Source: Escherichia phage UAE_MI-01. From it: 44,281 nt of DNA. How positions within the stretch are numbered: position 1 is the stretch's first letter; each line of letters opens with the position of its first letter. Positions 5,749-30,057 of this stretch are shown piece after piece. The notes beneath the pieces were generated by a model. It worked only from the letters and a program-made list of their open reading frames with translations, made no database searches and was not told the DNA's origin. Position numbers and translations under genes: made by a program. The stretch lies in the sequence record MW862804. The stretch is one strand, 5' to 3'.

Positions 5749-5903
5749 GCTATCCCCCTGGGATTGTGGCAGAGCAGGCCACCCGCTCGACTTCACGCTT
5801 CTAATATTATCAGCGATAAAAATAATCGCAAAATTCGCTTGCGTTGCGGGAATTGGTTGCGCTATATTGGTTGCACACCAACAGAGATATGAAGGAAAAC
5901 AAG

Positions 5904-6218
5904 ATGACTAACATGACCGTAGCAACTCCAGTAGACGCCGCAATGGCCCGTTTCAATAAAGCTACCGTAGCGAACACCTTTACCTTTCACGCAATGCGTA
6001 ACGCGGAAGCGTTGAATCTGTGCCAGAGCATGAATGCTTCCGAAGCGGCAAAAGCGGCGATCAACTCCGCAACATTTGATAATCCGGCTTGCGGCCTGGT
6101 TCCGGCATCTTTCATAAACGCCCTGGTCGAAGCCTTTAACGATTTCATGTGCGTCGATGCCGTTGAAGCTGTATGTGCCCGCTTAACTTCCACCGGTGGC
6201 AACATCAAATTCAACTAA
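5904..6218 (+). CDS. Hypothetical protein (moron, opposite orientation to flanking structural genes)
   Basis: ATG 5904 with GAAGGA RBS; preceded by TTGGTTGCACACCAACA motif. Confidence 0.5.
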   Translation: MTNMTVATPVDAAMARFNKATVANTFTFHAMRNAEALNLCQSMNASEAAKAAINSATFDNPACGLVPASFINALVEAFNDFMCVDAVEAVCARLTSTGGNIKFN

Positions 6219-6257
6219 ACCAACCGGGGCGAAAGCCCCAATAATGAGGACATAAAA

Positions 6258-7042
6258 ATGAGACTGACGAAAGACATTAAAAATCAGATCCTGGCTAACA
6301 TCCTGCGCGACCACGAAATAGCGACCGAAGCCAAACAAATCATGATGGACTCGCGCGATCTGGCTTATGCCATTACGCTGGACTGTATGCCATTACGCTG
6401 GACTGTATGCCAGAAGGCATTCGCACGTTCGCAGCGCTCCGCGAGCATATCAAGGCAATTCGCGACGACCAGTCGCAGATGTACGGCGTCAGCGTATACA
6501 CCAACAAGGCGACGTATAGTTATAACTCCGACCGCCCGAAAGGTATCGGCAGCGTTTACAACGCCACTTTCGAAATCAACGCAGGCGGAAATGTTCGCAC
6601 CTTGTCATTGAGTGGAGACGGTCGCCAATACCGCGTGCATCGCGGGTACTGGGAAGAGAAATATATGAATAAGCTCGCGCCCGATCTCGGCGATATCGTT
6701 CCGGGGTTCGAGACAGTTATGCTGGCTTCAGTGTGCGAAGTGGACGAGGACGGGAAAGCGCTGCCGATATATCTCCCACGCGGTCGCGTAGACTACCCGG
6801 CGGACCATGACTTCTGTAAGCGCCTGGACCGCAACGACAAGGCCCGTAGCGAGTTGCGCGCGAAGTATGATGCGTTCAGACTCACCGTTACCGGTGTACT
6901 GGACCTGCACAATACTGACAAGAAGCTGATTAAAGCATGGCCTGAAGTTGAGCAATTCATCCCATACCCGGACAAGCCAAAATCCACGGCGGTGGCGCTG
7001 GATGTGAAAACACTCAACGAGATTTGCGGCATTCCGCGCTAA
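6258..7042 (+). pseudogene. Hypothetical moron gene split by a 20-bp tandem duplication (frames rejoin if one copy is removed)
   Basis: ORF 6258..6611 and ORF 6407..7042 are in different frames; the 20-mer TATGCCATTACGCTGGACTG occurs twice in tandem (6366..6405); deleting one copy restores one continuous ORF of about 255 codons. Confidence 0.6.
6366..6410 (+). repeat. Perfect 20-bp tandem duplication (2.25 copies) inside a coding region
   Basis: Direct reading. Confidence 0.9.
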
Positions 7043-7044
7043 CG

Positions 7045-7072
7045 AAAAAGGGGCCATTATGGCCCCTTAATT
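7045..7072. terminator. Bidirectional terminator between moron island and Rz1
   Basis: GGGGCC-attat-GGCCCC flanked by A-run and T-rich tract. Confidence 0.6.
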
Positions 7073-22770: not shown

Positions 22771-23556
22771 ATGGCTAAAGTCAACCTGAAAAATGTGCGC
22801 GTATGTTTCCTGAAAATTTGGGAACGTGATACCCCTAAACAGGACGGACAAAAACCGGCATACCGCGCCGTGATTCTTCTTGATAAAGAAGATCCGCAGG
22901 TGGACAAAGTGGAAGCGGCAGCGCGCGCAGTGCTCACCGACAAGCTGAAATCCGAGAAGAATGCCGATAAGTGGATGGACCGCCACTACGCCCAGGATTC
23001 TAAGGAATGTGCAGTTCGCGACGGCGACGAGCGCGATGAAGTAACCGAAGAATTCGAAGGAATGTTGTACATCAACGCTAAATCGTTCAAACAGCCAAAC
23101 ATCCAAACGTCACTCGGCGAGAAGCAGACCGAACAGGGTCTGACCGTAGAAGGCGACGAAATCGAAGGCCAGGAGATCTACTCCGGTTGTTATTGCAATG
23201 TGTCACTGGATATTTGGGCGTGGAACAACACCAACGGCAAGGGACTCGGTGCTGGACTGCTGGGTTTACGCTTCCGTGATGACGGTGAAGCCTTCGGCGG
23301 TGGCGGATCTTCGTGCTCCGATGAAGACCTGGACAACGACGACGAAGATGAAAGCCCGCGCAAGTCCAAAAAGTCAAAACGTCGTGATGACGATGACGAA
23401 GACGACAAGCCGCGCAAGTCCAAAAAGTCCAAGCGCCGCGATGACGACGATGATGACGAAGACGAGAAACCTCGTAAACGTCGTAAGCCACGCGATGACG
23501 AAGATGATGAGGACGACGACGAAGACGAAGCACCACGCAAACGTCGCCGCCGTTAA
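22771..23556 (+). CDS. ssDNA-binding protein-like (DUF2815-type, putative) with C-terminal basic/acidic repeats
   Basis: ATG 22771 with GAGGAA RBS; synteny between DUF2800-like nuclease and PolA; C-terminus built from 54-63-nt tandem DNA repeats. Confidence 0.4.
   Translation: MAKVNLKNVRVCFLKIWERDTPKQDGQKPAYRAVILLDKEDPQVDKVEAAARAVLTDKLKSEKNADKWMDRHYAQDSKECAVRDGDERDEVTEEFEGMLYINAKSFKQPNIQTSLGEKQTEQGLTVEGDEIEGQEIYSGCYCNVSLDIWAWNNTNGKGLGAGLLGLRFRDDGEAFGGGGSSCSDEDLDNDDEDESPRKSKKSKRRDDDDEDDKPRKSKKSKRRDDDDDDEDEKPRKRRKPRDDEDDEDDDEDEAPRKRRRR
23356..23556 (+). repeat. Imperfect tandem coding repeats (54, 60 and 63 nt) encoding PRKSKKSKRRDDDD(E/D)n units
   Basis: Direct reading. Confidence 0.8.
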
Positions 23557-28256: not shown

Positions 28257-28948
28257 TTATCTGGTCATTGTTTGACGGCAGCGGCTTGATGATTGAGCGT
28301 GCTGCCGAGATGGGGCATAAGTGCTATTGCTTCAACTACTCCGAATCCGACCACGGGTCGTACCTGGACTACCGGATTTATGGTCGCGGGATCCGCTATC
28401 GCAATGCGTTTATTGATCTGGACTTTGTAGACCGCGCGATGAATGGCGATTTCGGTACGCCGGATATCATTTATGCGTTCCCACCGTGTACGGATCTGGC
28501 GGTGAGCGGTGCACCCGCTTTCCCGCGCAAGCGCGCCCGCGACCCCGCCTTTCAGCTTAAGGCGGTGCGCACCGCGAAGATCGCCGCTTACCTGGGTGAT
28601 TTCTTCGAAGTGCCATATATGATTGAGAATCCGCGCAGCGTGCTATCAACTCAATGGCGTAAGCCGGACCACTCGTTTGACCCGTGGGAGTATGGAGGAT
28701 ATCTTCCGGAGGATGACGTGCACCCGCTCTTCCCGGAATACATCAACGCCCGCGATTCATATCCGAAGCTGACCTGCTTATGGACTGGCAACGGCTTCCG
28801 TATGCCCGAGAAGAAACCTGTTTTCGTTGAAAAAGGGTACTCGAAGCAGTATAGTCGCCTCGGAGGCAAATCAGCCCGCACAAAATTAATCCGGTCGCTC
28901 ACCCCGCGCGGCTTCGCGATAGCGGTCAATGAGGAAAATTTAAAATGA
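28253..28948 (+). CDS. C5-cytosine methyltransferase-like protein with atypical motifs
   Basis: Motif I-like SLFDGSG, motif IV-like FPPCT (PCT instead of PCQ), motif VI-like IENP; only 231 aa; ATGA coupling. Confidence 0.45.
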   Translation: MIIWSLFDGSGLMIERAAEMGHKCYCFNYSESDHGSYLDYRIYGRGIRYRNAFIDLDFVDRAMNGDFGTPDIIYAFPPCTDLAVSGAPAFPRKRARDPAFQLKAVRTAKIAAYLGDFFEVPYMIENPRSVLSTQWRKPDHSFDPWEYGGYLPEDDVHPLFPEYINARDSYPKLTCLWTGNGFRMPEKKPVFVEKGYSKQYSRLGGKSARTKLIRSLTPRGFAIAVNEENLK

Positions 28949-29268
28949 ATACTACATTCGAGGCCATTGATTTTTCGGTTGCAATGACTAACCAGTTATT
29001 CTCCTACGACAGCAAGACCGGCGTCATTCGCCTGAAGTCCACCGGATGCAAGATCGGCAACCTTAACACTGCCGATGGCGGTACTCGTATCGAATGCAAC
29101 GGCAAGACGCTATCCGGCGCACGCGTGGCGTGGATTATTGAGACTGGCAATACAATCCCTCCAGGCTATGCCGTAGTGTGCCGTCAACGCACACCAGGCC
29201 ATTACGGCAACCGCATTAGTAACCTGTATCTGGTAGACGTTGCGCGCGACCCAAATTTTTATTCGTAA
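28945..29268 (+). CDS. Hypothetical protein
   Basis: ATGA coupling; 107 aa. Confidence 0.45.
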   Translation: MNTTFEAIDFSVAMTNQLFSYDSKTGVIRLKSTGCKIGNLNTADGGTRIECNGKTLSGARVAWIIETGNTIPPGYAVVCRQRTPGHYGNRISNLYLVDVARDPNFYS

Positions 29269-29592: not shown

Positions 29593-30057
29593 ATGAAAAT
29601 TTTACAAGAAGAAAAAGCATACTGGGCCGCGCAATGCCTCGAAGCCCGTGAACAGGCCGAACGTGCGAACGCGTTGGCGGACACCAACCAGGCGCTATAT
29701 GAAGGAGAGAAGAAAGTGCGCCGGGAGTTAGAGGAGCGCTTCGAACTGCTATTCGAATTGATGGGGATTATGCAACGCACAGGATACACCACCAGCGTTG
29801 CGCTAAACCGCATTACTGCCGAAGGTCTGCGTGAACATTGCAAACGTGCGGAGGCGTATGTGCCTCCGAAGGGTCGCCAGTCTAAGATCGACAGGAAAGA
29901 CCTGGTGCTTATGGCGTGGCGCAACCCTACAAACGGCAGCTTTTACCCAGACGCGCGCCCGCTTAGTGCCGAGGAGACAAAGCGCGTGCAACGCATTCTC
30001 AAAACCGGCAATAAAATCGCCCTGTATGCGATAGACACCGACCATGCAGAAGAGTGA
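29593..30057 (+). CDS. Hypothetical protein
   Basis: 154 aa; start abuts upstream stop. Confidence 0.45.
   Translation: MKILQEEKAYWAAQCLEAREQAERANALADTNQALYEGEKKVRRELEERFELLFELMGIMQRTGYTTSVALNRITAEGLREHCKRAEAYVPPKGRQSKIDRKDLVLMAWRNPTNGSFYPDARPLSAEETKRVQRILKTGNKIALYAIDTDHAEE

Follow-up and report, generated by a model that had tools for sequence, protein, structure and literature searches.

The locus at positions 6258 to 7042 of the window, by which we mean the whole stretch of 44,281 nt of phage DNA analysed here, raises the question whether two neighbouring open reading frames encode two small proteins or are the remains of one gene and, if the latter, whether the break is a genuine mutation, an artefact or a reversible switch. 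A preliminary description had assigned them to a single "moron" gene that was split by a perfect 20-bp tandem duplication. A megablast comparison with the phage collection identified the window as a genome-sized Dhillonvirus, about 92-96% identical to HK1 (PP514360), Kente (OX460974) and SSL-2009a. A prophage origin of the window was rejected, since no match was found in 5,426 complete E. coli genomes. Dhillonviruses are virulent siphophages of E. coli.

Tandem Repeats Finder reported a perfect tandem repeat at 6366..6412 with a period of 20, about 2.35 copies, 100% matches and no indels. Direct reading of the plus strand agreed. The 20-nt unit TATGCCATTACGCTGGACTG occupies 6366..6385 and again 6386..6405, and the start of a third unit, TATGCCA, follows at 6406..6412. 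Hence, the duplication exists as first described, and its start had been placed correctly, whereas the repeat ends at 6412 and not at 6410. In total, the sequence matches itself perfectly over 27 nt when shifted by 20 nt, for which about 2.5e-12 occurrences are expected by chance in 44,281 nt, and the window contains no other perfect tandem duplication whose period is 10 or longer. The segment 6386..6405 represents 20 nt extra in comparison with all relatives and appears as a 20-column gap in the aligned sequences of HK1, L014 and Opt212, although which of the two units is the "new" copy is not definable. Deletion of either one results in an identical sequence of 768 nt encoding 254 amino acids and a stop, including ...DLAYAITLDCMPEGIRTFAALREH..., so that the proposed fusion into a single frame of about 255 codons was confirmed. 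An imperfect repeat of a different kind is located at 23336-23460, where a 54-nt unit rich in acidic codons is repeated in frame (2.3 copies, 83% matches). By position it lies inside the gene of a Gp2.5-like SSB (22771-23553), which aligned over its full length to the SSL-2009a ortholog with 2 gaps.

The repaired frame (6258..7042, plus strand, 254 codons) is nmad5. Its product matched the Pfam family PF18757 (Nmad5) over the complete profile (1-206 of 206) with 206.6 bits at a cut-off of 27 (E 5.8e-61) as well as phrog_1965 (E 6.6e-63), and no family was matched in NCBIfam. The original description of Nmad5 reportedly goes back to Iyer et al. in 2013. The repaired protein shares 87% amino acid identity with the nmad5 product of SM_A8. 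Among 88 members of the family, L217, W221 and N247 are invariant and P222, E223 and L246 are conserved in at least 90%. The conserved C-terminal residues, these six included, are all kept in the repaired protein, and both family motifs, RLTxxIRxxIxxN in the N-terminal and KLxxxWPE ... LN in the C-terminal part, are present. The part of Nmad5 most widely conserved is the C-terminal one, residues 157-253 approximately. AlphaFold2 modelled the repaired protein with a pLDDT of 90.1 and a pTM of 0.83. Residues 5-42 form two helices in this model (5-17 and 20-42, pLDDT about 97). No solved structures resembling the Nmad5 model were found.

Comparison with orthologs had been named beforehand as the test that could refute the splitting of one gene into two out-of-frame frames. 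About 139 phage records aligned across nmad5 over 766-768 nt with a query of 786-788 nt and are thus 20 nt shorter, and at the position of both frames the relatives carry one annotated CDS of 765 nt. When read base by base, all 26 relatives that keep the site have one copy (26/26). Because the orthologs are single-copy and consist of one CDS, the two frames of the window are halves of one gene, as had been claimed, and not two separate genes. Neither the exact 40-nt duplication nor its 24-nt junction was present in IMG/VR or in JGI metagenome contigs, and an exact look-up of the 211-aa product of the downstream frame found no record. Among the sequences covered, the duplication is specific to the phage of the window. 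For PC2 and Over9000, length differences suggested further indels in nmad5. These were rejected, as both phages have an intact nmad5 and the indels lie between genes or in the spanin region. Two records labelled with other hosts, MG065648.1 ("Campylobacter phage A144") and OQ221563.1 ("Acinetobacter phage NJ01"), contain nmad5 regions 91% and 86% identical to that of the window, respectively, and their host labels look doubtful.

In the relatives, nmad5 is flanked by the scaffold gene and the spanin genes and runs antisense to the head genes. No DNA-modification genes adjoining it were found in the window or the relatives. The label "moron" given to the gene was not supported. Most of nmad5 is kept in about 146 of about 150 Dhillonvirus records, its GC content (0.50-0.56) resembles that of its neighbours, and its absences in JL1 and Teewinot are secondary deletions which left remnants. 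With regard to transcription features of the moron type, the orientation of the gene is opposite to that of the head genes, and a GC-rich hairpin with a 9-bp stem, terminator-like on both strands, lies at 7048..7068 between the convergent nmad5 and o-spanin genes, but the promoter scan found no sigma-70 consensus upstream of the plus-strand cassette.

This cassette also contains a co-oriented gene upstream of nmad5 (5889..6218, plus strand, 109 aa, phrog_24635, no Pfam family), whose presence varies across the genus and which is intact in the window. Of the two genes it resembles a moron more closely, as it is missing from SM_S22, Opt212, 101114B2, Teewinot and the metagenomic contig L022. The leader of the cassette contains about 2.4 direct repeats of a 14-nt unit (GTTGCG..ATTG) at 5843-5874. 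The sequence ATTGGTTGCACACCAACA, 3' of these repeats, is found directly 5' of nmad5 in Teewinot (L019) and in contig L022, both of which are devoid of the 109-aa gene. This repeat and leader region could be a candidate promoter or operator. An 8-bp GC-rich hairpin, ACCGGGGCGAAAGCCCCAAT, without a T-run on the plus strand, is located at 6223-6242 between the upstream gene and the ribosome-binding site of nmad5. The latter is a Shine-Dalgarno sequence GAGGA at 6246..6250 (plus strand), which serves the native start codon ATG 6258 with an anti-SD duplex of -6.0 kcal/mol.

The single-copy state points to the way in which the duplication arose. HK1 and Kente have the sequence of the window in single copy, GCT-TATGCCATTACGCTGGACTG-TATGCCA-GAAGG, in which TATGCCA occurs twice with starts 20 nt apart. 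The heptamer at 6406..6412 of the window corresponds to the second of these, ancestrally 20 nt downstream of the first TATGCCA. In 23 of the 24 other relatives with the site, identity at an offset of 20 comprises only 3-5 nt, as these 23 differ synonymously and have TACGCAA, TACGCCA or TATGACA followed by TATGCCG. The exception is contig L022, which likewise has a 7-nt identity at this offset. The exact single-copy sequence with its 7-nt repeat is common only to the two closest relatives, HK1 and Kente.

A perfect head-to-tail duplication without filler, whose unit equals the distance between pre-existing short direct repeats, is the classical signature of slipped-strand mispairing. The copies in the window are perfect, head-to-tail and filler-free and are bounded by a microhomology of the single-copy ancestor. 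No unusual feature sets them apart from such duplications, and the case is a textbook one. Since the unit is bounded by the TATGCCA repeat already present in HK1 and Kente, we infer that the duplication arose by slipped-strand mispairing in replication. In an immediate ancestor in the state of HK1 and Kente, synonymous changes would have resulted in two TATGCCA heptamers with starts 20 nt apart. During replication of the phage DNA, a nascent strand ending in the second heptamer would then have slipped back and paired with the first, so that 20 nt were copied twice. The insertion shifts the frame by +2 after codon 45.

A real lesion of recent date is the most likely interpretation. Alternatively, the duplication may be an artefact of sequencing, assembly or consensus calling, or a promoted minority variant, in a phage population that really carries an intact nmad5. 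Such an explanation would fit the occurrence of the junction in no other public sequence searched, the lack of a record for the 211-aa product and the isolated nature of the event in a gene that is otherwise strongly conserved. Moreover, the case for a real duplication is argued from the consensus sequence. However, a perfect head-to-tail copy of 20 nt bounded by a pre-existing 7-nt repeat is what polymerase slippage produces and not what a base-calling error looks like. An overlap from circular assembly would sit at the contig ends, whereas the duplication is located 6.3 kb from the end and the window has no terminal overlap. This variant was rejected, as no terminal direct repeat of at least 8 nt was found at the ends of the window. 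In a tblastn search, 62 of the 67 proteins of SSL-2009a matched the window, and all but nmad5 did so in a single frame over the full length. None of the 61 other matched CDSs is frameshifted, which indicates a consensus of high quality. Comparable lesions, described below, were found in relatives that had been sequenced independently. For these reasons an artefactual origin seems improbable. A putatively split HNH gene was considered as a second frameshift and rejected, as ORF 28945-29268 is intact (107 aa) and differs only by C-terminal divergence.

Taking the duplication as a real mutation, its age can be judged from the state of the remaining gene. The preliminary description had called it recent because of the lack of further decay, and this held true: the downstream frame is open over 211 codons with no accumulated stop, and the repaired nmad5 differs from that of HK1 at 26 positions, which correspond to 20 synonymous and 5 non-synonymous codons. 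Thus, the lesion seems to be recent relative to the divergence of the window phage and its relatives.

It had also been suggested that the duplication is a reversible slipped-strand switch. A programmed on/off switch of nmad5 by phase variation would be compatible with a unit length that is not a multiple of three and with the homology of 27 nt, by which precise reversion is mechanistically possible. A phase-variable locus would be expected to show a tract that varies among related strains. The site instead comprises two copies only, and neither a repeat tract nor any copy-number variation was seen in about 139 records or in the 26 aligned relatives, which all have one copy. Apart from contig L022, in which it also measures 7 nt, the microhomology of 7 nt that would permit slippage is limited to the closest relatives, and the other lesions found in nmad5 are irreversible deletions at different sites. 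A programmed switch is therefore exceedingly unlikely. Under the preferred reading of a spontaneous slippage event, the homology between the copies could still permit precise reversion by reverse slippage, as a by-product rather than as a designed property.

The duplication leaves no intact translatable nmad5 frame, since it breaks the frame after codon 45. In the ORF listing the two parts are in different frames. Likewise, residues 1-45 of gp07 of SSL-2009a aligned to the window in frame 3 and residues 37-254 in frame 2. The upstream ORF (6258..6611, plus strand) has 117 codons, of which 45 are native N-terminal Nmad5 codons and 72 are out of frame, followed by a stop at 6609-6611. The strong native start would thus give rise to a product composed of the native helical hairpin (45 residues) and 72 nonsense residues. 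The downstream ORF (6407..7042, plus strand) encodes 211 aa, namely residues 44-254 of Nmad5, and begins at the native codon for Met44. These 211 codons lie outside the frame read from the native start and are preceded by a weak internal one. Upstream of ATG 6407 only GGA is available as a Shine-Dalgarno sequence, with an anti-SD pairing of -3.0 kcal/mol compared to -6.0 kcal/mol at the native start, and this ATG lies within the translated upstream ORF, 200 nt ahead of its stop codon. Hence, neither translational coupling nor efficient internal initiation is expected at 6407, and the reinitiation initially considered for this ATG is unlikely to be efficient. The product of the downstream ORF lacks residues 1-43 and with them the helical hairpin and the family-conserved motif RLTxxIRxxIxxN. 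Given the weak Shine-Dalgarno sequence and this missing N-terminal part, the allele of the window is most likely null, as far as can be judged from sequence and model.

The split gene might nevertheless be functional if initiation at ATG 6407 yielded an active Nmad5 of 211 aa, possibly complemented in trans by the N-terminal fragment of 45 residues. In favour of this, the downstream frame is unbroken and has a native Met codon as its first, and the widest conservation of the family is found in its C-terminal part (about 157-253) with the invariant L217, W221 and N247. This possibility is weakened by the weakness of the Shine-Dalgarno sequence (-3.0 versus -6.0 kcal/mol) and by the position of the start, as ribosomes translating the upstream ORF cross 6407 and terminate 200 nt downstream. 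Furthermore, the model includes the N-terminal helices in the fold with very high confidence, the motif RLTxxIRxxIxxN is conserved family-wide, and the N-terminal fragment carries 72 nonsense residues. We consider a functional split gene highly improbable. The outcome of the duplication would rather be a null or strongly hypomorphic allele of nmad5, and a real, recent and spontaneous slippage duplication with this effect in a Dhillonvirus is probably the correct explanation of the locus.

Other lesions in nmad5 were found within the genus. In Opt212 (NC_073055; L018 1298-1316) a +2 expansion of (AT)n is found at codon 165 approximately, and the gene is annotated as two CDSs. In JL1 (NC_019419; L020 2001-2225) a deletion between CGCGCT repeats has removed all codons from 54 onwards, and Teewinot (NC_073053; L019 2001-2105) has lost codons from about 36 to about 248 between CGAAATCTG repeats, so that only the first 35-53 codons are left in these two phages. 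The gene inactivated in these viable plaque-purified isolates is the same as in the window, and the lesions are likewise situated at short direct or simple repeats. In contrast to the deletions of most of the gene in JL1 and Teewinot and the 2-nt expansion in Opt212, the lesion of the window is a duplication close to the 5'-end and precisely revertible. Among metagenomic sequences, a lineage of six 44-kb contigs (L022, 1114-1210) shows one additional A within an A-run near codon 27, and L023 (1640-1680) has an internal deletion at GCGAAGT. The protein clusters P0042, P0049, P0051, P0055 and P0057 are deletion or fusion products of nmad5. In P0057, ...ITLD is joined to VKTL... through CGCTGGA, which is the same spot as, and inside, the duplicated unit of the window.

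These numerous independent lesions at short repeats (the window, Opt212, JL1, Teewinot and at least six metagenomic alleles) raise the possibility that loss of nmad5 is adaptive, in the sense of recurrent selection for the loss of a protein to which the host is sensitive as a toxin or which lays the phage open to a defence other than the tested Tmn. In the samples examined, 3 of 148 isolate records (Opt212, JL1, Teewinot) have a lesion, and about 97% of the isolates are intact. The cluster-representative protein library over-represents aberrant forms of nmad5 and yields no loss rate. Substitutions in the gene are for the most part synonymous, and it appears to be normally maintained under purifying selection. 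Taken together with the high proportion of intact isolates, this suggests that loss is occasional and not generally favoured. Adaptive loss is conceivable, though rather unlikely.

Previous work on orthologs of nmad5 bears on possible reasons for its loss. The gene corresponds to CDS7 of SM_A8 and CDS6 of SM_S22 (Yamashita et al. 2025, Commun Biol 8:290; PMC11846954). Mutants of two Dhillonviruses that escaped Tmn carried K216E (K296E in the numbering of SM_S22), and an engineered deletion of nmad5 was viable yet still Tmn-sensitive (PMC11846954). Cloning of nmad5 failed, which the authors attribute to toxicity to E. coli, and DNA base modification by Nmad5 was asserted by inference only (PMC11846954). 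The nmad5 genes of SM_A8 and SM_S22 are orthologous to that of the window and occupy the same locus between scaffold and spanin genes, antisense to the head genes. The repaired protein of the window retains the escape residue K216 and, next to it, the invariant L217/W221 motif. The alleles differ, however, in that a missense mutation (K216E/K296E) and an engineered clean deletion were studied there, whereas the window has a spontaneous 20-bp frameshift at codon 45 with a wild-type K216. As the clean deletion did not escape Tmn (PMC11846954), the allele of the window is not expected to confer escape either, and escape from Tmn is not a good explanation for the duplication. The loss of nmad5 would be tolerated if the gene is dispensable for plaque formation in the window phage too, as was shown for the SM_S22 ortholog. 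Candidate selective reasons for the loss may be the reported toxicity of Nmad5 to E. coli on cloning and its tie to sensing by Tmn.

In the SM_S22 record (L021, PP627283.1, 2006-3010), the annotated nmad5 has 334 aa and extends into the scaffold gene. Its additional 80 residues at the N-terminus suggest that the start was called too far upstream, which would account for the numbering K296 in SM_S22 versus K216 in SM_A8. The length difference was described as an N-terminal truncation in SM_A8 (PMC11846954). Furthermore, the window encodes a 154-aa protein at 29593-30057 (plus strand) that is 82% identical to CDS0035 of SM_S22, annotated as "DNA ligase". It may be the ORF35 anti-Tmn protein of the same study (PMC11846954).

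Nmad5 genes are also found in thymidine-hypermodification cassettes of M6/YuA-like Pseudomonas phages, e.g. SN1_019 (PMC9476957). Their products belong to the same Pfam family, and the C-terminal 85 residues, approximately, are 37-40% identical to those of the window protein according to tblastn. The genomic contexts differ. The genes of the M6/YuA-like phages adjoin genes for aGPT-Pplase, a kinase, a radical-SAM enzyme and a PLP enzyme, whereas nmad5 of the window lies in the head module with only the 109-aa gene beside it.

The duplication as such is an ordinary kind of frameshift mutation in a known gene family. The modest interest of the case lies in the role of Nmad5 and in its link to Tmn immunity, as nmad5 is the only Dhillonvirus gene tied so far to sensing by the Tmn defence. 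In annotation, the two frames should be entered as a single nmad5 gene that is disrupted and not as two hypothetical proteins. If the lesion is real, the window phage represents a spontaneous, revertible null in a natural isolate, and with HK1 and Kente, whose sequence at the site is identical, intact relatives that are near-isogenic to it are available. Such a null may be used to test DNA modification by Nmad5, the cost of the protein and the host defences responding to it. Should the loss of nmad5 prove to be adaptive, the window phage would be a natural and precisely revertible nmad5-null which, together with HK1 or Kente, could reveal both the role of Nmad5 and the immune system that senses it.
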